This document shows, piece after piece, positions 107-32,830 of a stretch of 64,000 nucleotides of DNA. The position numbers and the translations under genes are program-made. Every line of letters begins with the position of its first letter. The stretch's first letter is position 1. The DNA lies in the NCBI GenBank assembly GCA_020060775.1, contig JAGUZN010000220.1:984-64983 (forward strand), given 5' to 3'. The notes beneath the pieces were generated by a model. That model worked only from the letters and a program-made list of their open reading frames with translations. It was not told where the DNA came from and made no database searches. This stretch comes from Armatimonadota bacterium (GTDB taxonomy: Bacteria > Armatimonadota > Hebobacteria > CAIYQO01).

Positions 107-3016
107 ATGATTCAAGCCTGGGTCTTTTCAAAACTGGAACCAGTCAAAGATGACCCGATGGTGGTCGTGCGTGACCCGTTGGGATTGACGGAAGGCATGG
201 AGAACGCATTACATGCCTGGGGTAAAACACACACCTACGCTGTGATCCCTTGTGCGACTAACCTGCTCTTCCGATATAAATATGAAGAAGCACGGGCGGA
301 TGAAACCATTAAGAAAATACTCATCCTTGATCGTACTCCTTTGAGTCGGCGCACACGTCCTGATTATCATCGAGCAGCGGCGCCGTTCTATCCAGATATA
401 TTGGCGCAAACGCGCCCCGAGGCGTGTATCGAACTGGATCTGCGGCAGTTCTTGCGTGAACAAACAAACGATGCGTATTGGCCACAGGAAGTGAATGAGC
501 CACGCCTGGCCCGCCTGCTCATGAAATATCTCGATGGAGCTCTGCGTGCCCATGAGAATCTACGGGCGGCAAGCCCTGATCGTTTCACCGACCAGGATTT
601 AAAAACGATCATCGCTTTTGCGGCTCTCGGTGTACCGGAAGCTGCTTTTAAGAATCTTTCCGCCAGTGAGTATTGGAAGATCGGTCTGCGTGGTCATCAT
701 GAATTGCGCGGGTTGGAGCAGCTCATGCCTGAGATCACCGAGACGATCACCGGCAAACTGAAGAAGGCACCAGCCCCGTTCTGTTGGCTTGCTGATAAAT
801 ATGACCCAGACACGGTGATCCGGGCTTTTTACCTTTCCGTTGTGTTGGCACAGCATGTGACGCACTGGCAAACGCTGCCGGCGAATGTTGATCCGATCTT
901 TGGGCGTATGGGCGGCATCGCCCCCGAGACCTTGCAGGATGCTGCCCCCAAGCTGGTGAGCCTTGATCCGGCACGAGCGCAAAGCGACATTCGCGCGATG
1001 GAAGATAAGTTGACCGTTAAGAATTTGCATTTTCTGCTACTCGAACAGATGCAAATTGAGGCACGGTTCGCTGAGGTGATCGAGAAAGAGCAATACTCGG
1101 AATTATTCCGTTCCCTCTCGCTCATTCTCGCCCTTGATAATCTCTGCTCAACACACCCGACCCAGGAAGCGCAAAAGCGGGTGAGTGAGGCGTTACTGGC
1201 TAAACGTTCACAACGCGCGCTGGTTGACCTTCGCCCTTCAGCGACCTGGAAAATATTACGACAGGCATATCTCCGTGCCGTACGACTTCTCGCCTTGCGT
1301 GGGCAACTTGGCAAATTCGTCAAGGAGCTTGACCAATTGCCGGAAACTACGCAGGTGCTCTATCTGGCGCCCGGTCAAGAAAAAACCGTTGCCTTTCATG
1401 TGAAGCCGGATATTTCACTAGCCACCAATAGTGAGAGAGCTTCAGGGGAGATGCCATGGGCACTTCGGGTGTGCCCGGTATGTTATGAGCGTGGCTTAAT
1501 AGAAGAAATTAGTACGCGATCTGAAAAATTCGGATCGATCCCCGTCTTGGTTAGTTACATATGCGAAAACGGTTGCCAACCACAGAGTGGCGAACGCCTA
1601 CACAACGATCCAGATGACAAAAAGAGAGAGTATTTTAAGAAATATGATGTCGGTAAATTGGCCGAGATAGAAGAAATGGAAATACCATATTGGTATCCGA
1701 GAAATCGCATGATGAATGCCCCTGAAGATCAGGAATGTTGGGGAGTAAAATGGCGCGCTGGAACTAGTAACTTTCGAACTGTCGACGAGTTGTTTACAAA
1801 ACGAAATTTGTGGGCTCTCGCTGTACTCTTCAATGCAGCTTCTCAAGAGCAGACCAGCGATGTGCTTAGGTTTAGACTGGAAGCCATTTTACTAAATTTG
1901 TCTCGTATGCAAGGTAACACTACTGATCCTCGCTTCCCCAATAACATTATTCGAGGGACTTATTATACACCTCAAATTATGCGTGAATACTCAGTTTTGC
2001 CGTGGTATGCCGGTAAGATACGAAATCTAATTGATGGTTATTCTAAATTATACCCTTCATACCAGGGCTTTGGAGAGGTTTGCATTTCTACACAATCTGC
2101 ATGTTCAATGGATGCCATTCCAGATAATTCACTTGATTACATATTCACTGATCCACCGTATGGGGACAAGGTTCAGTATGGAGAACTCAACTTTGTATGG
2201 GAATCATGGATGGGGTGGAATACACTTTGGCATGATGATGAGATCATAATTAATGACGTCCGGGGCAAGACCGAGCTTGATTGGTCTGAAATGATGGAGT
2301 GTGTAATTAAGGAGTGTTACAGAGTCTTAAAGCCTGGTAGATGGCTCACTTTATGCTATCACGACACTTCGGAGGGAACTTGGGCACTTGTCCAGGACCT
2401 GATGAAAAACGCTGGTTTTATAGTGGACGTTTCAGGCAGTACTCTATTTATCGAGACAGAGCAGAAATCGTTCAACCAGCTTACGGCTGATATCGAAGAA
2501 ATGTTCTTTATGGCGCACCGCATCTCAGCGCTAACACACCGGCATCCCAGGAGCCAGATGGCATGCGGTCTCTACTGCATAATGGCAAAAGGCTTGCTGT
2601 ATGGATTGACGCCCGGAGAGGCCTACCGGTTTATGGTCGAACAGGGGCATCGGTGCTACAACGTCACCCCGTTTCAGCAGGAGATGTCCCATTTCGCGCG
2701 CATCCTCTCTGGCGAACTAATCGGTATGCCTATTAACGAGATTGCCTCCAGCGGCTATGTCATACATACGCTGGAGGCCAGTCTGTGGTGCCTGCTCACA
2801 ACAGGCTCATTCGAGGATGCTGTATTGACGGCGGTGAACCTGGGCGACGATACCGATACGACGGGATGCGTTGCCGGCGGGCTTGCTGGCGTGAGTTACG
2901 GAGATCATGCAATTAATGCTACCTGGTTATCAGTTATTGTCCGGTCATCTGATATGCGAGCGCTGTCGCAGCACTTTCTGGCAGTGATACCGCAAGAGAT
3001 CGGTATAGGAGTGTAG
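107..3016 (+). CDS. Mosaic 969-aa protein: unassigned N-terminal region, then a Zn-ribbon/DPPY DNA-methyltransferase module, then the C-terminal half of an ADP-ribosylglycohydrolase
   Basis: Cys ribbon at CPVC (aa 456-459) and CENGC (aa 486-490). Motif IV LDYIFTDPPYGDKVQYGELNFVW has DPPY at aa 682-685, as in N6A/N4C methylases, but I see no FxGxG/DPFxGSG motif I. From aa ~803 (nt ~2510) the sequence becomes ARH-like (ALTHRHP, GDDTDTTGCVAGGLAG). GC falls at ~1400-2490 and rises again after. Confidence 0.6.
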   Translation: MIQAWVFSKLEPVKDDPMVVVRDPLGLTEGMENALHAWGKTHTYAVIPCATNLLFRYKYEEARADETIKKILILDRTPLSRRTRPDYHRAAAPFYPDILAQTRPEACIELDLRQFLREQTNDAYWPQEVNEPRLARLLMKYLDGALRAHENLRAASPDRFTDQDLKTIIAFAALGVPEAAFKNLSASEYWKIGLRGHHELRGLEQLMPEITETITGKLKKAPAPFCWLADKYDPDTVIRAFYLSVVLAQHVTHWQTLPANVDPIFGRMGGIAPETLQDAAPKLVSLDPARAQSDIRAMEDKLTVKNLHFLLLEQMQIEARFAEVIEKEQYSELFRSLSLILALDNLCSTHPTQEAQKRVSEALLAKRSQRALVDLRPSATWKILRQAYLRAVRLLALRGQLGKFVKELDQLPETTQVLYLAPGQEKTVAFHVKPDISLATNSERASGEMPWALRVCPVCYERGLIEEISTRSEKFGSIPVLVSYICENGCQPQSGERLHNDPDDKKREYFKKYDVGKLAEIEEMEIPYWYPRNRMMNAPEDQECWGVKWRAGTSNFRTVDELFTKRNLWALAVLFNAASQEQTSDVLRFRLEAILLNLSRMQGNTTDPRFPNNIIRGTYYTPQIMREYSVLPWYAGKIRNLIDGYSKLYPSYQGFGEVCISTQSACSMDAIPDNSLDYIFTDPPYGDKVQYGELNFVWESWMGWNTLWHDDEIIINDVRGKTELDWSEMMECVIKECYRVLKPGRWLTLCYHDTSEGTWALVQDLMKNAGFIVDVSGSTLFIETEQKSFNQLTADIEEMFFMAHRISALTHRHPRSQMACGLYCIMAKGLLYGLTPGEAYRFMVEQGHRCYNVTPFQQEMSHFARILSGELIGMPINEIASSGYVIHTLEASLWCLLTTGSFEDAVLTAVNLGDDTDTTGCVAGGLAGVSYGDHAINATWLSVIVRSSDMRALSQHFLAVIPQEIGIGV

Positions 3017-3314
3017 GTCTGCCTCCGTTGATGTGGAACACTCATCGCTCTTATAGCGACAGCTTGCCCTTATTTATCCGTAGGGGGACGTCAATATCAA
3101 TTACTCGCGCTCGAAGACACTGCTCTGCATATGGTTGAAGATAGGCACGAATCGGTCATTTAGCTAATCCGACAGGCACTATAAACGACGTATCCATTGA
3201 TATTGCGGAGTCTCACGAAATCATTGCTGGTTTTGGACCTTAGGCGTATACTTGCTCTGTTGGGCAAGTAGCGTTTGGGTGCAAGCCATAGTAATCGGCT
3301 AATGGCGCTATTCT

Positions 3315-4388
3315 TTGAAAGGCGTGGAGCAGACCGTGGCAAAGTTGTTCATGAACGGCCTACAGCTAATTCTATCTTCCGATAGCTTCACTGCATACGA
3401 GGCAGAAATGCCCGAAGATGGTAGCTTGCGGAAACTGCGCGACCGATATGGCGACGGGTGGTTTTTCCATCGTCAAGGTAATAAGGTATATGGTTTTCCA
3501 CAAGTCGATCGTCCTACCATCCCATTTGGCACGTCCGTAGCATTAAAATGCCAAGAAAACCTTTCTATGCTAGCTGCGGTAGTCGGTGATATTATAGGAC
3601 GACGTCGATTCGGAGGCCAGGTATTATTCCGTCATCGTGGTGCGGAGTTCATCAGTAGTACAAAGGAACTCATCAGTGATGTCGCCAAACAAATGCCGGA
3701 TCTTCCCGACATAGTCAAGTTATTCAAAGCTTATCCACGTTTTACTTTAGAGGCAAAAGTCCTTGAGCTACGCGATGGCGATGGTGGGATCGGGTTATTC
3801 GTTACGTTGGGAAGCAGGTGGCGTATCGAAGCACCTCTCCACGATCTGTTGAGTAAAGGTATTGACCTTCAAGGTATGTACGTCGTTCGAAGGTATCCCG
3901 AGAAAGGCCAGCGGAGGCTTGTTGGTAGAATCTCCTGCATTGATAAAGGAACCGTCAAATTGCTAGAGTCATTCGACGGTACGGCTGAGATTGCGTGCGA
4001 CGACGTGTGGCTTGAAGGGAATAGAGAAAATTTTGCCTATTGCTTGAAGCACTTACTGAAGGCGCGTTACCTATCATTTGAGACTAAGCGTAGGGAAATA
4101 GAAGACCAGTTATTGTCGGGGCCTAAATTTCAGACAACGATACAAAGCATTGCACAGTCATTTACAAATAAGCCTCCCATGCAACTCACTCCTGATCTCC
4201 AGTGCATTGTTGGCGATATGATTTCCGTGAAAAATTTCGGCGGATACTGCACTGTGCGTGCCGCTTCTCCAGTGCAATGTTGCTATGATGCTGCACGGAC
4301 GCAACGGATGGAGTATCCCTGGAAAGGGATCGAAAATTTGGTCCGTTTAGTCGTGACACCTTTACAAGAAAATCACCGACGATACTAG
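3315..4388 (+). CDS. Prokaryotic Argonaute, N-terminal half (N/L1/PAZ-like/L2 region), separated from MID-PIWI by a frame change
   Basis: 357-aa ORF ends 2 nt before the MID-PIWI ORF and lies in another frame. Its length fits the N-terminal half of a long pAgo. No motif is readable by eye. Start is uncertain (TTG 3315 or ATG 3351). Confidence 0.55.
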   Translation: MKGVEQTVAKLFMNGLQLILSSDSFTAYEAEMPEDGSLRKLRDRYGDGWFFHRQGNKVYGFPQVDRPTIPFGTSVALKCQENLSMLAAVVGDIIGRRRFGGQVLFRHRGAEFISSTKELISDVAKQMPDLPDIVKLFKAYPRFTLEAKVLELRDGDGGIGLFVTLGSRWRIEAPLHDLLSKGIDLQGMYVVRRYPEKGQRRLVGRISCIDKGTVKLLESFDGTAEIACDDVWLEGNRENFAYCLKHLLKARYLSFETKRREIEDQLLSGPKFQTTIQSIAQSFTNKPPMQLTPDLQCIVGDMISVKNFGGYCTVRAASPVQCCYDAARTQRMEYPWKGIENLVRLVVTPLQENHRRY

Positions 4389-4390
4389 TT

Positions 4391-5605
4391 GTGTTCCCCG
4401 ATAGTGAACAAGGACCTGTTGAACGATTCCTTCGTTCGTTTCGCGACGGGATATCGTCGTCAGCCTTTGCATCTGGCTTTGTCAGGAACTTTTCTCTCGT
4501 CAACTTAAAGATTGAAAAGGTGCGAGTACCCTGGCTGGGGAAAGGGAGTCAGGCTCCTGCGCAAGCGTATAGAAAGGCGATAGATGATTACTTGGCATCC
4601 GCAGATTCGGTGCCAGATGCTGGGATCGTCATTCTCCTAGACGAACATGCCAAACTTCCCGATGCGGTAAACCCGTATCTACATGCTAAATCATCATTGC
4701 TCACGGCAGGTGTCCCGGTCCAGGAACTACGGGTGCCGACTATCAAGCAAGCTGACACATCGCTTTCCTATACCCTGCGTAACATCGCTCTCGCTCTGTA
4801 TGCAAAAATGGGGGGAACCCCATGGACAGTCGACCAGGATATGACGATCAGCGATGAACTGGTGATTGGCATGGGGAGCTGCGCACTCGCAGAGAGCCGT
4901 TTTATAGAGCGTGAAAGATATGTTGGCATCACTACCGTCTTTCGAGGAGATGGCAGCTACCTACTGGGGAACATCTCCAAAGAATGTCCGTACCGTGAAT
5001 ATCCGCAAGTTCTGGAGAGCGAAACTATATCTGTATTGAATGAAATCAAATATCGGAACGGTTGGCGTCCCGGTGATACCGTGCGGATCATATTTCACAC
5101 CTACAAACCATTAAAAAATATCGAGGTAGAAGCGATTGCTGCCAAGTGTGTGCAAGCTATCAGCGGTGAGCAGAATATCGAGTTTGCATTCCTCACGATT
5201 TCTCATGATCACCCTTTTAGACTTTTTGATATCGACCAGCAAGGTATCAAGGGTACGAAAGGCATCTATGTTCCCCAGAGGGGAATTATTATGCAGCTTG
5301 GACGATACACTAGGTTGCTTTGTACAACAGGACCAGAGTTAGTCAAACGTGAAGGATTGCCTTTGCCAGCACCTCTGCTTGTTCATCTGCATCCTGCATC
5401 AACCTACCGTTCATTAGATTACCTAGCTGAACAAGTATTGAAATTTACTGCGCTCTCGTGGCGTTCGACATTGCCTGCGCCGAAACCAGTAACAATCTTT
5501 TACTCTGACCTGATTGCGCAATTCCTGGGTCGCTTACAGCGTATTCCTGATTGGTCTCCGGCAACTCTAAACGCAAAATTACGTGCGAGTCGGTGGTTTC
5601 TATGA
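4391..5605 (+). CDS. Prokaryotic Argonaute MID-PIWI half, predicted catalytically inactive
   Basis: MID-like ILVVFPD strand and NPYLHAKSSLL..VPVQEL (Y-x3-K..Q 5'-end pocket). PIWI hallmarks LRNIALALYAKMGGTPWTV and PVTIFYSDLIAQ. The positions expected for DEDX aspartates read VIGMG and IIFHTYK. This frame is already open from 4289. Confidence 0.8.
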   Translation: MFPDSEQGPVERFLRSFRDGISSSAFASGFVRNFSLVNLKIEKVRVPWLGKGSQAPAQAYRKAIDDYLASADSVPDAGIVILLDEHAKLPDAVNPYLHAKSSLLTAGVPVQELRVPTIKQADTSLSYTLRNIALALYAKMGGTPWTVDQDMTISDELVIGMGSCALAESRFIERERYVGITTVFRGDGSYLLGNISKECPYREYPQVLESETISVLNEIKYRNGWRPGDTVRIIFHTYKPLKNIEVEAIAAKCVQAISGEQNIEFAFLTISHDHPFRLFDIDQQGIKGTKGIYVPQRGIIMQLGRYTRLLCTTGPELVKREGLPLPAPLLVHLHPASTYRSLDYLAEQVLKFTALSWRSTLPAPKPVTIFYSDLIAQFLGRLQRIPDWSPATLNAKLRASRWFL

Positions 5606-6843
5606 CGACGTATTTGTCAGGAGTATATGCTCAGCAACTTAGTACCCTAGCGACACATATCGCTGATGATGCAGTGTGGCCATCTCCGTACGCCGGGTTT
5701 CTTTACTATCTGTGTAACAAATACGATCAGCAGTTTCTGGCACCTTTGATTAACCCTTCACCGCCATGTGTTGAGCTCGGGCGGCTTTACGAGGCACCGA
5801 TTCTTGCATCAGCAGGATATTTATTCGCGCTTAACCATCCTGTAGTTCGTGCAAGTTCCGAAGCTTGGCATATTGGGTTTCAACGGCTTGCTGGGCGCGA
5901 TCCCTTCCCAATTGACCGCCAGTCATTCGTATATCGTCCAATAGAACTGCTTGGTATTACACTTGGAGTGAAGCACTGCCCTAATACTACGCAGGCAGAG
6001 ATTGATTGGCTTATAAATGTGCTACAGAGTGCTGAAAGCCGGCTGAAGAGTGCGTCCTGTTGGCAGTACCTGCTTGGTATGTATGCTTCACGACTACTGG
6101 GTAATTCCTGGGCAAAGCGTTCCTGGGATATTGGGCAATTCCCTGTGGATGACTTGAGCATCGTGGTATGGCTGTGCGCCAATACTCCTGATTTAGCGTT
6201 TGAATTCGGTGTAGACCAATTATACAAGCAAGCAGAGGAATCATTACTGACCCAGTGTGCAAAAACGGAGGTTACCATCCCAGATCCCGCACGTGCTGCA
6301 ATACTCTACTCTAGTCTTGACCGAGCTGTGAGCCGGAGTATTGAATCAGAGCACGAGCGCAATTGGCAAATAGGCCGTGATCAAGCCGATGCCCTCTCAA
6401 TCGTTATCACGTTATGCCGTAGATTTGATTTGTGTGTAAGGCAACTCCAACGTAGGCAGCGAAGTCGCAATCCTTTCACTGTACAAGATGAGTATGATGT
6501 CCAAGACCTGATGCATGCTTTGTTGAAGTTACACTTTGATGATGTTCGTCCCGAGGAGTGGACACCGTCATATGCTGGCAACGCATCACGCGTCGATTTT
6601 TTGCTTAAACGAGAGATGATCGTTGTTGAGGTAAAGATGACTCGCGATAGCCTAGCTCAACGTGAGCTAGCGGACCAATTAATTATTGATAAAGAGCGGT
6701 ATCGATCACATTCTGACTGCCGTATACTGGTGTGTTTTGTTTATGATCCGGAGCATCGCTGCACGAACCCGGCAGCATTGGAGAATGACCTCAGCGAGCA
6801 GATCGGTCTATTTAGGGTTGAAGCAATCGTCTCACCTGCGTAG
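5602..6843 (+). CDS. pAgo-associated protein with a C-terminal PD-(D/E)xK nuclease-like domain
   Basis: Its ATG overlaps the pAgo stop (ATGA at 5602-5605). The C-terminal ~110 aa read DEYDVQDLMH..RVDFLLKREMIVVEVKMTR, giving an E..D..E-x-K core. The N-terminal ~300 aa are unassigned. Confidence 0.65.
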   Translation: MTTYLSGVYAQQLSTLATHIADDAVWPSPYAGFLYYLCNKYDQQFLAPLINPSPPCVELGRLYEAPILASAGYLFALNHPVVRASSEAWHIGFQRLAGRDPFPIDRQSFVYRPIELLGITLGVKHCPNTTQAEIDWLINVLQSAESRLKSASCWQYLLGMYASRLLGNSWAKRSWDIGQFPVDDLSIVVWLCANTPDLAFEFGVDQLYKQAEESLLTQCAKTEVTIPDPARAAILYSSLDRAVSRSIESEHERNWQIGRDQADALSIVITLCRRFDLCVRQLQRRQRSRNPFTVQDEYDVQDLMHALLKLHFDDVRPEEWTPSYAGNASRVDFLLKREMIVVEVKMTRDSLAQRELADQLIIDKERYRSHSDCRILVCFVYDPEHRCTNPAALENDLSEQIGLFRVEAIVSPA

Positions 6844-7290
6844 GTCTGCGGAGCAATGTTATGCAAATGCAATTCGTCGTACATCCGAGAACGTATGAGA
6901 TCAACGGCTATTTCTTTCAAGTGCTGTCATGTTGCGCGTTGACTGATGGGCAGGCAGCTAATGCTGCCATGCATTTTTATCAAACACATAAGCTAAAGAA
7001 GAAAGACAAAGGAAAATTAATTAAAGTCATAACGAGCCCTGATACGGATACTGCAGGAATCTTTGGGTAGCACGGCTACCTATGACTACAGATACGCCAA
7101 CCTAAGTTATGCAACGTGATCTGAAGGAAGCATTCAGCAGTATTACCAGGTTACTCCTACATGAGCGTGAGGAGTATTCATTAGGTCGGTCCAAAGACCG
7201 TGCTGATATTTTAAGCGCAGGGTCTCCAATTCCCTCATGGCAGCCCCTGCGACCATTACCTATGTGGATGGTCCTTCACTTATTTGATAC

Positions 7291-8298
7291 TTACAGATCA
7301 AGCAATGATGCCGAATTCTCTTGAAACAACACCCCCATGCGGATATACCGCTGCACCATCACATTCGACCGATGACCGGTCTGCTGCATGATAGATCGCT
7401 CGTTTGCACCTGCACGGGCGGCGGCGGTGCAGTGGCCGGCGCGCAGGGAGTGACCGCTGTAGCGTTTCGGATCAAGGCCGATCTCTTTCACCATCTTCTT
7501 GATGAGATTGGCGACGGCACGATCCGATAAGCGCTCACTGCAGAGTTTGTCATGACGGTTGATGCCGCGGAAGAGGGCGCCGCCGGTAATCCCGCTGGAT
7601 TCCAGCCAGGATTTCAAGGCACGCACTGGACAGGTTTCTTCATGAGTGCCAAATGGTATGGCGACCCAACGCCCTTCACCTTCTTGATCTGTTTTTGATC
7701 GGCGGAGGCAGATAACGACTCCTTCCTCCCTGAAGGTCAGGTCGGCGACATCAAAGGCGACCAACTCGGAGCGCCGGAAGGCGCCAGCGTATCCCAGGAG
7801 TAGCAGTGCGCGGTCCCGCCGGCCTTTCAATGTCTCTGGTAATACCGCCATGATGCGTCTCATGTCATCGGTCATCAAGGCATCGACCTGGCGGGCGGTG
7901 ACGCCGATCCGCCGGCGAATGCCGCGCATGACGGCCCGCACGGCGGCGTGTTGGGTGGGGGAGGGGTGGCCAGCGTGTTGGTGGATGGCGCTGATGGCGG
8001 CCATATAGCGCGAGAGCGTGCTGTACTTGTGGTCGGTCGTCGCCATCGCCGTCATGTAGCAGGCAATCGTCTCAGGGCTGGCCGGCATCGACGGCAAGTG
8101 GTATTGTTCGCACCAGGCCACGAACTGCTGCCAATCCCGCTCGTAGGCCTCCCGCGTGTGTTGCGAGATACCTTCCTCGATGAACTCCTGGACTTGCTCG
8201 ATCAGTGGAACGAGAAGGGTGTGATCGGGGTGCTGGTTGGCACTGGGCCCGATCCGGGCAGGCAGTGATGCTGGCTGGGTGATGGGAGCCTGATCCAT
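7291..8298 (-). CDS. Tyrosine recombinase / phage-type integrase (XerC/D-like)
   Basis: N-terminal SAM-like domain (TREAYERDWQQFVAWC). C-terminal catalytic signature RRSELVAF..HSLRAGHCT..TGHRSNVMVQRYIR (R..HxxR..H..Y). Confidence 0.85.
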   Translation of the reverse strand: MDQAPITQPASLPARIGPSANQHPDHTLLVPLIEQVQEFIEEGISQHTREAYERDWQQFVAWCEQYHLPSMPASPETIACYMTAMATTDHKYSTLSRYMAAISAIHQHAGHPSPTQHAAVRAVMRGIRRRIGVTARQVDALMTDDMRRIMAVLPETLKGRRDRALLLLGYAGAFRRSELVAFDVADLTFREEGVVICLRRSKTDQEGEGRWVAIPFGTHEETCPVRALKSWLESSGITGGALFRGINRHDKLCSERLSDRAVANLIKKMVKEIGLDPKRYSGHSLRAGHCTAAARAGANERSIMQQTGHRSNVMVQRYIRMGVLFQENSASLLDL

Positions 8299-8301
8299 TA
8301 A

Positions 8302-8519
8302 CTGAGTCTTATCGGAAGCTAGAATAGCTTCGAGCTCAGAATAGAGTCAAGTCGCGCCAGTTCAATCCTAAATGTGTTCCCCCTCGGGCTGTCCCCAGCC
8401 GTCATCCTCTGCATTTTCTACCCGAAATGCCTCTAGGCGAGTACGTTTGGCTACACATTTTGCCCTGGAGGTGCCATGTGTTCACGACAGATCGGTTTCT
8501 AGCTTCCGTTAAGACTCAG
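8302..8519. repeat. 23-bp inverted repeat pair enclosing a 172-bp segment (candidate invertible element or MITE)
   Basis: 8302-8324 is CTGAGTCTTATCGGAAGCTAGAA. The reverse complement of 8497-8519 is CTGAGTCTTAACGGAAGCTAGAA, 22/23 identical. The left repeat begins 4 nt from the recombinase start codon. Confidence 0.7.
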
Positions 8520-8561
8520 ATATGAGCTACAACGTGTCTGGTAACACCGGTAGGGGGCAGG

Positions 8562-8927
8562 GTGCGTAATACGTTACTTTTAGTTGGTGGCGGCGAATTA
8601 TCAACGCTCATCTACAAGCCTGCCCTGGAGGACGCCAATTTTCAGGTAATCCTTACGCCTGATGCACGGGTGGCAGTGCAAATGGTCATACAGTACCATG
8701 CTCAAAGTATTCTCATTGATGATTCGATTCAGCCCAGTCAAGCTGAGGAAATCATCACCAATATCCATCAACTCACCCCAACAGTTAAGAGCATTTTGCT
8801 CTGTGATGGCGATAATATCAGTGATAATGCTCTCCAGTACCTGTTTGATGGCATATATCAGAAAAGCTGGCCATTACCAGTTTTAGTCACACTGGTTCGT
8901 TTTCTTCTGTGTCAGCAGGAGTCCTAA
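8562..8927 (+). CDS. CheY-like receiver-domain protein, probably a pseudo-receiver
   Basis: 121 aa with a GTG start after GGGGGCAGG. REC-like layout LLLVGGG..ILIDDSI..SILLCDG..YQKSWP, but the N-terminal acidic DD pair is replaced by GG. The gene is AT-rich relative to its flanks. Confidence 0.4.
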   Translation: MRNTLLLVGGGELSTLIYKPALEDANFQVILTPDARVAVQMVIQYHAQSILIDDSIQPSQAEEIITNIHQLTPTVKSILLCDGDNISDNALQYLFDGIYQKSWPLPVLVTLVRFLLCQQES

Positions 8928-8964
8928 GCAACCCGGCGTTTGCTAGAGTGGAAGAATGGGAAGC

Positions 8965-9144
8965 TTGACAATCCAAGCTGAAGAGCGTATCGTTTCACCA
9001 TATTAATGCATACCTCAACTATGTCCGAGATGCATATCGCCGTCTGCATTACCTGGGAGACATAACCGTCGCATCCGGGCACGCTGCGCTTTTTTCACCT
9101 CTTCCCGGATGCCGGGAAGGGGTTTTCTTTTTCAGGGGGTCCGT
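8965..9144 (+). promoter_or_regulatory. Leader cassette X1: promoter, 19-codon uORF and intrinsic terminator upstream of a nucleotidyltransferase gene
   Basis: TTGACA 8965-8970, 17-nt spacer, TATCGT 8988-8993. uORF 9006-9065 encodes MHTSTMSEMHIAVCITWET*. Terminator at 9098-9132. Blocks CCGTCTG, TGGG, ATAACCGTCG, CCGGG and the terminator are shared with the cassette at 22590-22769. Confidence 0.55.
9098..9132 (+). terminator. Rho-independent terminator / attenuator hairpin
   Basis: CCTCTTCCCGG-ATG-CCGGGAAGGGG forms an 11-bp stem with one G-U pair, followed by TTTTCTTTTT. Confidence 0.7.
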
Positions 9145-9939
9145 TTGATTGCGCTTCGAGGCGATACCCGCTTGTTGCCTTTGGTCTCATGGTGGCAGAC
9201 AGAAATCCATACCGTGTTAAGCGACAAGCTGCAAGCGGTGGTGCTGGGCGGCAGCACGGTGCTTGGCGATTTCCAGCCGGGGTGGAGCGATGTCGATGTC
9301 TGCGTGGTGCTGCGTACGCCGATCACGGAAGCCGAAGGCGCTGTTATCGGACAGGTGCACGACGCCATGCGTGCCCACTTCATCGACGGTGGGCAAGATG
9401 GCTGGCGATCAGGTCAGGCCATTGAAGGTGCCTATATCACCGGCGAGATGTTGCAGTATGGACACGCTGGCACCTGTTACGTCGCCGGCGGTAGCACGCG
9501 CTGGTGGGGTGTGAAAGATCCTATTTCGCCGTTCGACCGCCTGATATATGCCCAACACGGTTGCTGGTTGTTTGGTGAAGAAGTGCCTATTGCCCTGCCA
9601 GATGGAAAGGCTTTGCGGGCACAATCTATCCGCGATTCGCAGGAATTCATAAACCCACCAGCCGGGTGCCTGGAATCCGCCATCTGGCTGGCCGGCATCA
9701 TGCACTGGTTGTCCCGCACGCTGGTCTTCTGGCGGGATGGGGAACTGGTATCCAAAACCGCCGCGCTGGAGCGCGAGGTCGCCGCTGGTAGACCGCTGGC
9801 GAGCGCCTTCATCCTGCCCCTGGCCTTGCGGCGGGAGGGGAGTGCAGCGTGCCGGCAGCATGTTGATGATCTTCGGTATAATTACCAGGCGAATCTTGAT
9901 ACGGCTGTGCAGTCATTGGTCGAAGTCGGACTGCTGTAA
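9145..9939 (+). CDS. Nucleotidyltransferase-domain protein (aminoglycoside/small-molecule adenylyltransferase-like)
   Basis: VVLGGSTVLGDFQPGWSDVDVCVVL matches the GS-x(n)-D-x-D polymerase-beta-type NTase motif. The ATG at 9109 lies inside the terminator hairpin, so I moved the start to TTG 9145, 5 nt after AGGGGG. Confidence 0.6.
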   Translation: MIALRGDTRLLPLVSWWQTEIHTVLSDKLQAVVLGGSTVLGDFQPGWSDVDVCVVLRTPITEAEGAVIGQVHDAMRAHFIDGGQDGWRSGQAIEGAYITGEMLQYGHAGTCYVAGGSTRWWGVKDPISPFDRLIYAQHGCWLFGEEVPIALPDGKALRAQSIRDSQEFINPPAGCLESAIWLAGIMHWLSRTLVFWRDGELVSKTAALEREVAAGRPLASAFILPLALRREGSAACRQHVDDLRYNYQANLDTAVQSLVEVGLL

Positions 9940-30307: not shown

Positions 30308-31093
30308 ATGAGAGTGTCAACTGCAAGTGAATATGTGCGCACACTCCTCCAACGTGGCCGCTATACCTTCAGCCGCGATGAAGCCGAAGCCGCGCTGGGG
30401 AGTCCGCGTGCGACGATGAAGGCGTTACACCGGCTCGAAAACCAGGGATGGCTGGTCTCACCGAGCCAGTGCTTCTACGTCATCCAGGACCCCCTGCATC
30501 AAGTTGCCGGGTTACCTGTCGAATGGTTCCTGGATGATTGGGCGCGACACCTCGGCGTGAAGTATTATGTCGGACTGCTCACCGCGGCGATGTATCATGG
30601 CGCCGCCCATCAAAAGCCGCAGCAGTTTCAGGTGATCGTCGACCGGCAACTCAGACCGGTGGTTCGCGGTCCGTATCATATTCACTTCTTTTATAAGAAG
30701 CGCATTGCTGATGCCGCCTGGGAGACGCGGCAGTCACCTGCCGGCTACTACCGGATCAGCACCCCGGAAATGACCGCCTACGATCTCCTGCGGTATCCGA
30801 AGGCGTGCCCGACCCGTGATATGGCGGCCACCATCCTTGCGGAACTCGGCGAGATGATCCTGGACGACCGTTTGGCAGATCTCCTGGAGCAGGAAGCAGA
30901 GATTGCCACCCTCCAACGGCTGGGGTGGATGCTGGATGCGGTCGGCTGGTCAGCGAAGACCGAGGCGTTGGCCAGTGCATTACACTCCCATCGTCGGCTC
31001 TGGCAACCCTTGCGGCCTGATCTTCCAGCCGATGGCCCTCGCGACCCACGCTGGCGCATCATCGTGAATGAAACGATTGAGGTTGAGATATGA
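30308..31093 (+). CDS. abiEi: AbiEi-family antitoxin / transcriptional regulator (type IV TA, abortive infection)
   Basis: Sits immediately upstream of, and overlaps by ATGA, an AbiEii-type nucleotidyltransferase. The N-terminal winged-helix-like RTLLQRGRYTFSRDEAEAALG and the size (~260 aa) fit AbiEi. Confidence 0.6.
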   Translation: MRVSTASEYVRTLLQRGRYTFSRDEAEAALGSPRATMKALHRLENQGWLVSPSQCFYVIQDPLHQVAGLPVEWFLDDWARHLGVKYYVGLLTAAMYHGAAHQKPQQFQVIVDRQLRPVVRGPYHIHFFYKKRIADAAWETRQSPAGYYRISTPEMTAYDLLRYPKACPTRDMAATILAELGEMILDDRLADLLEQEAEIATLQRLGWMLDAVGWSAKTEALASALHSHRRLWQPLRPDLPADGPRDPRWRIIVNETIEVEI

Positions 31094-31917
31094 TCCCCGA
31101 GGCATTTCTCGCCGAGTGGCGAGTCACCAGCGCACCATGGCAGCAACTGGCCATGGTCGAACAGGACCTGGTCATCAGCCGGGCACTCCTGAATATCTAC
31201 GACGATGACTACCTCCGGGACCGATTGGCCTTTCGTGGAGGGACCGCGCTCTACAAGCTCTACCTGGTGCCGCCGGCACGGTATTCCGAAGACATTGATC
31301 TGGTGCAAATCAACGCCGAGCCCATTCGCGAGACCGTCGTTCACCTGCAAGCGGCACTCGACCCCTGGCTGGGGCAGCCGCGGTATACCGCAACCGCACA
31401 ATCGGTCAAACTGCTCTATCGCTTCGCGGCAGAAGCGACGCCAGGTCTGCAGCAGCGCCTGAAGATCGAGATCAATACGCGGGAGCACCTTCCGGCATTT
31501 GGCTTGGTCAATAGACCGTTCACTGTGCAATCCCGATGGGTCGACGGCACGGTTATGATCCCCACTTATGCCATCGATGAACTACTGGGCACGAAGCTGC
31601 GCGCGCTCTATCAACGCAAGAAAGGCCGTGATCTCTTTGACGTGGATTATGCCATGCGGCAAGGGGAGGTCGATGGGCAACGGGTGCTCACAGCCTTCAT
31701 GCATTATGTGTCTCGGCAGGGATTGCGCATCACCACCGGGCAGTACCAGGCCAACCTGCGGGAGAAGATGACGGACCCCCGGTTCGGCGCCGACATTGCC
31801 CCACTGCTGCGTGATGGGATTGCCTTCTCACTCGATGAGGCATTAGCCCGAGTGGAGGAGCAGTTCCTGCGTCACCTTGACGCCGCCTGGTCACAGGTGG
31901 CGGAGCCTGTCCCGTAA
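31090..31917 (+). CDS. abiEii: AbiEii/AbiGii-family nucleotidyltransferase toxin (DUF1814)
   Basis: LAFRGGTALYKLYLVPPARYSEDIDLV (GG-T-x-L .. S-E-D-I-D NTase core) and KLRALYQRKKGRDLFD. Confidence 0.8.
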   Translation: MIPEAFLAEWRVTSAPWQQLAMVEQDLVISRALLNIYDDDYLRDRLAFRGGTALYKLYLVPPARYSEDIDLVQINAEPIRETVVHLQAALDPWLGQPRYTATAQSVKLLYRFAAEATPGLQQRLKIEINTREHLPAFGLVNRPFTVQSRWVDGTVMIPTYAIDELLGTKLRALYQRKKGRDLFDVDYAMRQGEVDGQRVLTAFMHYVSRQGLRITTGQYQANLREKMTDPRFGADIAPLLRDGIAFSLDEALARVEEQFLRHLDAAWSQVAEPVP

Positions 31918-31919
31918 GA

Positions 31920-32830
31920 TCAGCAGCCATGTTGTTGCTGGTAACAGCCACTTAACGGAAGCCAGCCATTAACACCACTGGGATCGAGCACGAAGGCGAC
32001 CGCGTCGGTGCTGGTAAATACCCAGAGCCACCAGCGCAATTTCGTCTTGTCGTTGAAGTGGAGCCACCACGTTTCATCCGCGTGCCAGTGGTCGGCCATA
32101 CGCAGATGGAGGAGGGTGGCATCATAGAGCGACGGAGCAGCGCGCCGACGGTGTCTTGCACCCTGAAGAGTGTGCTGGAGGCGAAGCGCACGCCGCAACA
32201 CAGGGTCAGTGCGTACAGTTAGCGGTAGACGGTTGGCCGTGGAGGAATTTGTTGACGACCAGGTGCGCAATGGCGCCGGTTCGGGATGAGTTTCGGCGGC
32301 GCAAGCGCGGGCAATTGCACCGTGGAGCCCGGCAGGTGGTACTTTCGCCGCATATGGATGACGCGCCGTATCCTGGCCTCCCCGTTTGAGGTTGGTGGCG
32401 TCTTTCGTGCCAGCGGTGGTGAGTAGTACTTCCCAAAGATGGGGCATTGGCGTGCCTCCTCGGGGAGGTTATGGAGCACCTCGCTGGGCGGCAACTATTG
32501 GTAGAGCCGACAGCCATGGCCGGGAGTGCCGTGCCGTTGCCCGCTCTGACCATGCGGCGCGTCGGTGGGCGCATCAGCCGACGGGATTGGCTGGAGTCGG
32601 GGGCGTCTGCGGCGGCACCGCGGAGGCTCTGCTCGGATTTTCGCCAAACAGCATCGTCTATTATTGCGGATGAGGGCATATTGCTTGGCGACCATCTCGC
32701 GCAAGGCGGCGTTGTCGGAGAGCAACTGTTCGACGGTCTCCTGCAGCGAGACGACGGTGGTCTCCAGCGTCTGGAGGCGCGCCAGCAGGGACGCGATGTC
32801 ATAGGCGGTGGGTGCAATGGACATTCCTCT
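31920..32830 (-). pseudogene. Decayed, 3'-truncated IS66-family transposase
   Basis: IS66 landmarks are spread over three minus-strand frames. These are an N-terminal coiled coil (LQTLETTVVSLQETVEQLLSDNAALREMV), a WRKSEQ box, the zinc-finger region LPEEARQCPIFGKYY..RRKYHLP, and HADETWW..WLWVF (first DDE Asp). The sequence ends before the rest of the DDE domain. Confidence 0.65.

Follow-up and report, generated by a model that had tools for sequence, protein, structure and literature searches.

Many invertons are known in which a neighbouring tyrosine recombinase gene operates the switch, and the phase-variable ones of gut and pathogenic bacteria have been studied in detail, whereas those of environmental phyla have received hardly any attention. 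In the fim system of Escherichia coli (FimB/FimE, fimS), the tyrosine recombinase is encoded next to a short invertible promoter element, which is 314 bp long, has 9-bp repeats and depends on IHF and Lrp. Expression of the recombinase is set by the orientation of the element under fimE orientational control, which biases the population to one state, as passages of PMC9881135 describe. The locus reported here shares the arrangement of fim, whereas its recombinase belongs to a different subfamily (the FimB/E models score it at 12-20 bits against a cutoff of ~221), and its cassette, unlike fimS, carries a Shine-Dalgarno (SD) sequence and a start codon for the recombinase. Likewise, the RecV switches of Clostridioides difficile (cwpV, flgB, cmrRST and pdcB) are regulatory cassettes of 150-200 bp inverted by a tyrosine recombinase; unlike the enzyme considered here, RecV acts in trans on many distant switches, and its gene is neither adjacent nor altered. 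The cmr switch controls response-regulator genes according to passages of PMC8844915, as is proposed for the present locus. In the Xer-type inversions of Mycoplasma and Ureaplasma (vpma, mba), passages of PMC2268961 and PMC3047005 place the recombination site inside coding sequence and have the inversion re-assign a promoter together with a 5' coding end to alternative gene bodies, which is again similar to the arrangement below; the swapped 5' ends of vpma and mba serve surface-antigen genes, whereas the mobile 5' end would here be the recombinase's own. The invertible promoters of Bacteroides governed by Tsr/Mpi are comparable in format, with cassettes of ~170-200 bp and repeats of 19-25 nt that often lie beside a tyrosine recombinase, and they control surface or secreted proteins, a cargo also carried by several relatives of the present locus, although the recombinase families and the host phyla are different. 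To our knowledge, no recombinase translation signals have been reported in the Tsr/Mpi cassettes.

With respect to the enzyme, the comparison leads to Cre/loxP of phage P1 and its Cre-type kin (Dre/rox, Vika/vox), for which passages of PMC10250229 set out that exchange takes place within the spacer, that partner spacers must match, and that inversion or excision follows according to their orientation. Over the catalytic and N-terminal core, the recombinase can be aligned with Cre (E 6e-16) at an identity of ~25%, and its target, like lox, consists of two inverted half-sites around an asymmetric spacer, directly beside the gene and with identical partner spacers. In contrast with the 13-8-13 anatomy of loxP, the half-sites measure 11 nt (up to 13 with a frequent TA) and the spacer 7 nt; moreover, two inverted sites 204 bp apart bracket regulatory signals, whereas P1 uses a single site for cyclisation and dimer resolution, and the proximal site is translated within the recombinase ORF, unlike that of P1 Cre. 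The module half-site ...CGGAAGTTA also resembles the loxP arm, ...CGAAGTTAT. A full-text literature search, examined through titles, abstracts and passages, led to the classical systems and to large surveys, but yielded no cassette that carries the recombinase's own translation start and no native two-lox inverton of the Cre type. Herein, a probable switch of this kind is described in a 64-kb stretch of Armatimonadota DNA, which is referred to in its whole length as the window.

Recombinase, lox-like sites and cassette of the window

The earlier note on this DNA had recognised a tyrosine recombinase, an identity borne out by a Pfam Phage_integrase match (E 7e-22) that is accompanied by a SAM-like N-terminal domain. 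The best match among solved structures (PDB) is Cre of phage P1 (E 5.6e-16, residues 42-320), whereas the match to XerD (E 5e-8) is eight orders of magnitude weaker. The catalytic residues R175, K202, H283, R286, H309 and Y318, which represent the R-K-H-R-(H/W)-Y set of Cre-like tyrosine recombinases, are invariant in a 28-sequence family alignment. By homology, the enzyme is classed as Cre-type and not as FimB/E-type. Assignment as a FimB/FimE-type invertase (NF007371, 20.5 bits against a cutoff of 222; NF007370, 12.3 against 221), an integron integrase (TIGR02249, 24.4 against 265) or a XerC/XerD equivalog (~70 bits against cutoffs of ~330) was tried and rejected, and the NCBIfam assignment was generic only. 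The family comprises more than 8000 relatives, the best non-self matches being 57-60% identical, and is distributed over Armatimonadota, Acidobacteriota, Chloroflexota, Bacillota and other phyla as well as predicted viral contigs.

Two arms lie upstream of the recombinase gene, CTGAGTCTTATCGGAAGCTAGAA (8302-8324) and its inverted partner (8497-8519), which match at 22/23 positions with 172 nt between them, just as the earlier note had described. The recombinase ORF (7291-8298, minus strand) begins 3 nt past the left arm, and the right arm ends 42 nt 5' of the GTG of ORF 8562-8927. The repeat can be extended to 26 nt (8299-8324 and 8497-8522, 92% complementary, with 172 nt enclosed), giving the inverted pair around a short segment by which invertons are recognised. 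Further copies of the 23-mer, for which a search had been recommended, do not occur in the window besides the pair: with up to 3 mismatches allowed, only the two arm copies were found in the 64-kb window, where 0 were expected (100 shuffles).

Judged by its anatomy, each arm belongs to a lox-like core site of 29 bp (11-7-11) and is not a simple repeat (Table 1). In each site, two inverted half-sites surround an asymmetric spacer within the 6-8-bp range of Cre/lox targets, the outer half-sites of the window being degenerate. The recombinase ATG (8296-8298), which has no SD, lies inside the proximal outer half-site; the site-specific recombinase expected of an inverton is encoded alongside, with its ORF starting inside the proximal site itself. 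A scan for pairs with the site motif (PWM) revealed no further switches, either in ~1 Mb of locus sequence or in the remainder of the window. As a separate observation, a lone lox-like sequence, GTTGCTGGTAA-CAGCCAC-TTAACGGAAGC, is found at 31934-31962 of the window and includes an exact copy of the switch inner half-site. It is placed between the gene of an AbiEii toxin (31090-31917) and a fragment resembling IS66 (31920-32447) and is accompanied by no matching-spacer partner; 0 such sites occurred in shuffled windows.

Table 1. Coordinates of the features assigned around the putative switch of the window
Feature	Position	Strand	Description
Cre-type tyrosine recombinase gene	7291-8298	-	335 aa in the assembled state
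Proximal lox-like site	8291-8319		11-7-11 anatomy, common to all arms and all module loci
Proximal outer half-site	8291-8301		TGATCCATTAA; moderately degenerate
Proximal spacer	8302-8308		CTGAGTC, 7 nt
Proximal inner half-site	8309-8319		TTATCGGAAGC
Putative invertible cassette	8309-8512		204 bp between the two spacers, both inner half-sites included
Weak promoter-like site	8298-8325	+	TTAACT-16-TAGAAT; reads into the cassette; shares the symmetric -10 (TAnnnTA) with promoter P
Outward promoter P (consensus scan)	8321-8350	-	-35 TTGACT (8350-8345), 18-nt gap, -10 TATTCT (8326-8321)
SD and start codon	8467-8525	+	GGAGG (8467-8471) and GTG (8478-8480); opposite cassette end from P
Distal lox-like site	8502-8530		11-7-11 anatomy
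Distal inner half-site	8502-8512		GCTTCCGTTAA
Distal spacer	8513-8519		GACTCAG; exact reverse complement of the proximal spacer
Distal outer half-site	8520-8530		ATATGAGCTAC; degenerate
Cargo gene	8562-8927	+	121-aa protein, probably a diverged receiver domain (BLASTP, PDB matches)
Terminator-like hairpin	9097-9123	+	12 pairs, then a T-run; 3' of the cargo gene

Promoter and SD calls are consensus matches, made in phyla whose signals are little studied. An outward-reading promoter within the segment, a further mark of an inverton, is present as such a match (promoter P) and reads into the recombinase as assembled. A TTGACn-17/18-TAnnnT element that adjoins one inner half-site and reads outward is present in every module locus. 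The hexamers to which the earlier note had drawn attention (TAGAAT at 8320 and CAGAAT at 8337) do exist, but the promoter conserved in relatives is located on the opposite strand. In addition, the -10 beside the inner half-site is mostly TAnnnTA across the module loci (8320-8326 in the window) and provides a -10 hexamer on both strands, so that the promoter may be bidirectional. Relatives searched for an inward promoter that would serve the recombinase in the flipped state gave no consistent candidate.

As assembled, the SD-GTG at the other cassette end opens a dead-end ORF of 15 codons with its stop at 8523-8525. After a simulated flip, the same GTG is in frame with the recombinase, and the product reads MFTTDRFLASVKTQL-MDQAP... 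over 350 aa. At 9/9 loci subjected to this simulation, the SD-start comes to be in frame with the recombinase and open through the recombination site, for which chance would account with (1/3)^9, and in 7/9 of them it is located exactly at -42 from the spacer edge. The window GTG stands at -42, as do the starts of L001, L028, L007, L004, L001b, L165, L167, L237 and L238. In the assembled state of most loci, the SD-start opens an ORF of only 8-48 codons, and at L112 and L001b the recombinase is left without any usable start in the orientation in which the promoter faces it (state A). A variant was noticed in the L167 lineage (L167 1-210, also L239/L240), where the cassette ATG at -42 also shares the reading frame of the receiver gene when in state A, and the resulting fusion reads MSNDTSILTSTNYQIVEV...MSEKKTVLLVDDE; being in frame both ways, the same start codon could serve either gene by orientation, which is not so in the window or in L001.

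The gene on the distal side, here called the cargo, aligns by BLASTP over most of its length with the Response_reg cargo of L238 (E 2.7e-7), and it is also homologous to a second, non-cargo Response_reg of L001 (8405-8776; E 1.3e-5) and to the receiver cargo of L239; a BLASTP comparison with the cargo receiver of L001 gave no match. Its best PDB matches are the receiver domains of LuxO and HupR, and the JGI name is response regulator, while no Pfam match was obtained at E<=0.01. The full conserved set of a receiver (acidic pair, acceptor Asp, Thr/Ser and Lys) is not preserved, as the acidic DD pair is changed to GG and the Ser to Cys, a residue pattern consistent with a pseudo-receiver. That name, already used in the earlier note, is apt in part: the protein is a diverged homolog of canonical receiver cargos and has lost the DD pair, while the acceptor Asp and the Lys are retained. 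Past the cargo gene, the terminator-like hairpin overlaps the annotated-length start (9109) of a nucleotidyltransferase-domain ORF (9109-9939), whose actual start probably lies downstream of 9109.

A pAgo defence island adjoins the receiver-like gene. At its start, a 969-aa protein (107-3016) is encoded in which a DNA methyltransferase region of the PglX-like or type II kind (PADLOC PglXI, E 7e-55) is joined to an ADP-ribosylglycohydrolase domain at the C-terminus (E 1e-33), which is an unusual fusion. It is followed by a class II pAgo split over two adjacent ORFs, covering positions 2-314 and 334-724 of the PADLOC pAgo_II model, and then by an Aga helical-REase partner with a DpnII/MboI-type nuclease domain (coordinates 3315-4388, 4391-5605 and 5551-6843). 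The split could mean that the gene is a pseudogene, that the sequence contains an error, or that the pAgo truly consists of two parts. Moreover, the base composition is mosaic when 1400-9000 is compared with 9000 onward: the pAgo island and the receiver-like gene have 45-49% GC, and the recombinase ORF alone has 60-64%, like the remaining window (~60%), so that recombinase and cargo differ in composition.

The module and its orientation in relatives

The same module stands beside homologous recombinases in at least 13 independent loci, and its position is kept beside recombinases only 45-60% identical, with unrelated interior sequence. In the closest homolog with genomic context (P0005, 60% identity), a divergent Response_reg gene and a 268-bp spacer precede the recombinase, and a 33-nt inverted repeat encloses 161 nt, its proximal arm overlapping the start codon. 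A scan for inverted repeats was applied to 146 loci with enough upstream sequence, a proximal arm being required near the recombinase start; 7 loci reached a score >=16 at the recombinase 5' end, compared with 0 controls, and ten reached >=14, compared with 1 control. An earlier scan with strict scoring had detected the repeat in almost none of 80 genome loci, whereas this better-anchored one gave a clear subclade signal. Since the inverted pair is absent from most relatives at 45-52% identity, it is taken to belong to a subclade. Additional members (L165-L167, L169 and L237-L240) were added through protein look-ups and from viral contigs.

From its inner to its outer end, each arm is made up of an 11-nt inner half-site, a 7-nt spacer and an 11-nt outer half-site with the consensus TTnnCGGAAG(C/T), and the distance from spacer to spacer is 162-204 bp in 12 loci. 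Between the partner sites of these loci, 35/132 positions of the inner and 58/132 of the outer half-sites are mismatched, compared with 0/84 in the spacers, which are unrelated between loci. The spacers of L165-L167, which were found without any repeat scan, match at 21/21 positions, and three close lineages bear the alleles CTATCAA, CGATCAA and CAATCAA, each with its matching partner. Identical partner spacers, maintained through compensatory alleles, are what Cre/lox recombination demands.

In relatives that lack the pair, a single palindromic site of the same motif is present at the recombinase 5' end in 20/205 cases versus 0 controls, with no partner site within ~4 kb, which suggests that the motif is the recognition sequence of the family and that the inverted two-site arrangement is derived. 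Examples are L057 (1757-1785), L009 (3915-3943) and ~18 other loci, with sequences such as GCTTCCGATAA-GTGCCTC-TTTTCGGAAGT, a nearly perfect palindrome; these are candidate native recombinase/target pairs resembling cre/loxP.

The divergent gene begins 15-150 nt past the distal site in all module loci, and its identity varies among receiver domains, lipoprotein-like or secreted proteins, an MBL-fold protein and a GH42 glycosidase. Within the sublineage of the window (L001, L167 and L237-L240), it is a single-domain response regulator. L001 (3695-3892 and 5399-5627) and likewise L002 were seen to hold two recombinase-plus-switch modules side by side. The second module has as its cargo the Response_reg gene that the two recombinase genes enclose; the first is equipped with separate sites that have the spacer TGCCCGA, and its cargo on the far side encodes 418 aa in L001 and a 553-aa GH42-type glycosidase in L002. 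A recurrent block was also observed 3' of the recombinase (L001 8800-12630, L004 8076-12968 and L237 4100-6865). GATase_6, DUF5049 and Amidoligase_2 are found in all three blocks, DUF4815/beta-helix/Collar proteins in those of L001 and L004, and GGACT in that of L237, a GATase_6/DUF5049/Amidoligase_2 neighbourhood reminiscent of a phage or mobile element. A large serine recombinase takes this place in L239 and L240, and in L239 ParB/RepB genes come next.

State A is the assembled orientation of about 12 of the 15 distinct module loci, and free reversibility of the switch would not by itself produce so strong a bias. L165, L237 and L238 are assembled in the flipped orientation (state B). In L165, the contig of P0002 (350 aa, N-terminus MYAQPKALTSTKVHL-MAATSP), the SD-ATG at -42 is fused to the recombinase in a 350-codon ORF, and the promoter TTGACT-17-TAATCT is at the far end, facing the divergent gene; one protein cluster at 90% identity contains both N-terminal forms. 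When L237/L238 are aligned with L239/L240/L167, the proximal flank (95% identical) and the distal flank (72-77%) run in the same orientation, whereas the cassettes are 70-72% identical after reverse complementation and 54-58% otherwise, and the inner half-sites have moved with the cassette while the outer ones stayed. A reversed cassette with travelling inner half-sites is the product expected of strand exchange within the spacer. The long N-termini of P0132, P0007, P0012 and P0004 had also been considered as flipped-state fusions and were rejected, as the gene callers had started inside the state-A promoter region. Site anatomy, its conservation, the in-frame design and the two orientations in relatives are thereby visible in the sequences as they stand.

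Proposed inversion switch and competing explanations

On these comparisons, the locus is probably a complete switch in itself, in which the Cre-type tyrosine recombinase encoded alongside inverts the DNA. The suggestion made in the earlier note, that an inverton may switch the recombinase and/or the downstream gene, is strengthened by the architecture shared across at least 13 loci and by relatives in both orientations. If strands were exchanged within the two identical spacers (8302-8308 and 8513-8519), the result would be inversion of the 204-bp cassette 8309-8512, which appears to bear two outward signals, namely a promoter of the sigma-70 type and, at the opposite end, an SD with start codon, so that orientation would set both the transcription of the cargo and the manner in which the recombinase is expressed. 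In state A, which is the assembled one, the promoter would fire through the proximal site into the recombinase gene with its ATG devoid of an SD, while the SD-start would face the receiver-like gene, yielding the 15-codon ORF only, and the cargo would be without a cassette promoter. In state B, the promoter would face 8562-8927 across a leader of ~55 nt, for which reason the cargo is predicted to be ON, and the SD-start would be joined in frame to the recombinase gene, with the recombination site translated in between, to give a recombinase with a 15-residue extension. We infer these consequences for expression, together with activity in the window genome, from the arrangement of the signals.

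A higher output of recombinase in state B may drive the return to state A, and B to A would accordingly be the faster direction by analogy with fimE orientational control; such a return would account for most assemblies being in state A. The symmetric -10 (TAnnnTA) might moreover give weak inward transcription. It is conceivable, although on balance we lean against it, that the module is a portable self-timing inverton of the Cre type, in which cargo-ON drives its own reversal in rare transient pulses and which has been recruited to varied cargo repeatedly. Because the recombinase start is carried on the cassette, the cargo-ON state would equip the recombinase for efficient translation, and rare, transient ON pulses would explain the state-A bias in the assemblies.

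Several other explanations of the locus were weighed. The window may hold a decayed or locked relic of such a switch that is now a fixed divergent promoter region, which is unlikely but has to be taken seriously. Its outer half-sites, TTAATGGATCA and ATATGAGCTAC, are both degenerate and differ at 7/11 positions, so that this copy could be slow or locked; the pair scored below the full-site threshold and was missed by the motif-based pair scan, and the window assembly displays a single state. Decay is at odds, however, with inner half-sites and spacers that are intact (1 and 0 mismatches between partners), with a full-length recombinase ORF bearing all catalytic residues, and with an SD, an in-frame GTG at -42 and a promoter that have all been kept; degenerate distal outer half-sites are, furthermore, common in the family, naturally flipped L165 included. 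The sites might instead be static operators, at which the recombinase would bind, possibly with looping, to regulate its own promoter, and no inversion would occur. In favour of this, the promoter -10 abuts a half-site, so that bound recombinase would probably repress the promoter, and most assemblies display one orientation. We regard this as very improbable, as binding alone needs no identical partner spacers (0/84 mismatches, with compensatory alleles) and leaves unexplained both an SD-start whose frame agrees with that of the recombinase solely in the inverted state and the relatives with a reversed cassette. There is also just a slim prospect that the locus is an integron-like platform or the attachment site of an integrative element, undergoing integration and excision and not inversion: relatives without the repeat have just one lox-like site, placed at the 5' end of the recombinase gene, like mobile elements and P1, and some members of the family are encoded on viral contigs or have phage-like or plasmid-like genes as neighbours, but inversion is the sole outcome open to a pair of sites with inverted spacers at a distance of 204 bp, the integron-integrase model reaches 24 bits against a cutoff of 265, and the window contains neither tRNA nor direct repeats.

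The complementarity of the arms could equally be viewed at the RNA level, as pairing in the transcript that forms a 5' UTR hairpin of an attenuator- or riboswitch-like kind, in line with arms that co-vary between loci yet stay complementary. This has little chance of being correct, given that Rfam returned nothing on 6800-9300 other than one chance miRNA match, and that an RNA element would not explain the internal dyad of each arm, the outer half-sites beyond the inter-arm repeat, the Cre-type neighbour or the reversed cassettes of relatives. As for a 218-bp MITE or the end-pair remnant of an IS between two genes, the terminal inverted repeats of 23-26 nt and the small size are typical enough, but the probability is close to nil. 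The earlier note had doubted a MITE for want of a matching duplication, rightly so, as the flanks (TAA and ATA) differ and no target-site duplication is present; there is no second copy in the window, and the arm 21-mer has 0 matches in 185,579 species-representative genomes, a set that does not include the source genome. Besides, the position is conserved relative to homologous recombinases around unrelated interior sequence, and the arms are built from the half-site motif of the recombinase family, which is also found singly beside relatives without the repeat.

Meaning of the proposed switch for the family and its hosts

The inversion switch, as proposed, defines a family in which a Cre-type enzyme would run the switch, the sites can be read from sequence and the translation start of the recombinase would be rewired by inversion. 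The predicted built-in feedback offers a testable model of a switching bias hard-wired in DNA. Every locus supplies a recombinase together with its cognate lox-like pair (11-7-11, with diverse spacers), which are candidate orthogonal tools for genome engineering. Should the self-timing inverton prove true, it would furnish a collection of lox-like systems from nature, whose spacers measure 7 bp and whose paired sites are known, and it would extend over cargo types such as receiver proteins, lipoproteins and secreted hydrolases in Armatimonadota, other environmental phyla and phage-like elements. In the bacterium of the window, the switch would make the expression of an orphan, probably phosphorylation-independent receiver protein heterogeneous across the population.
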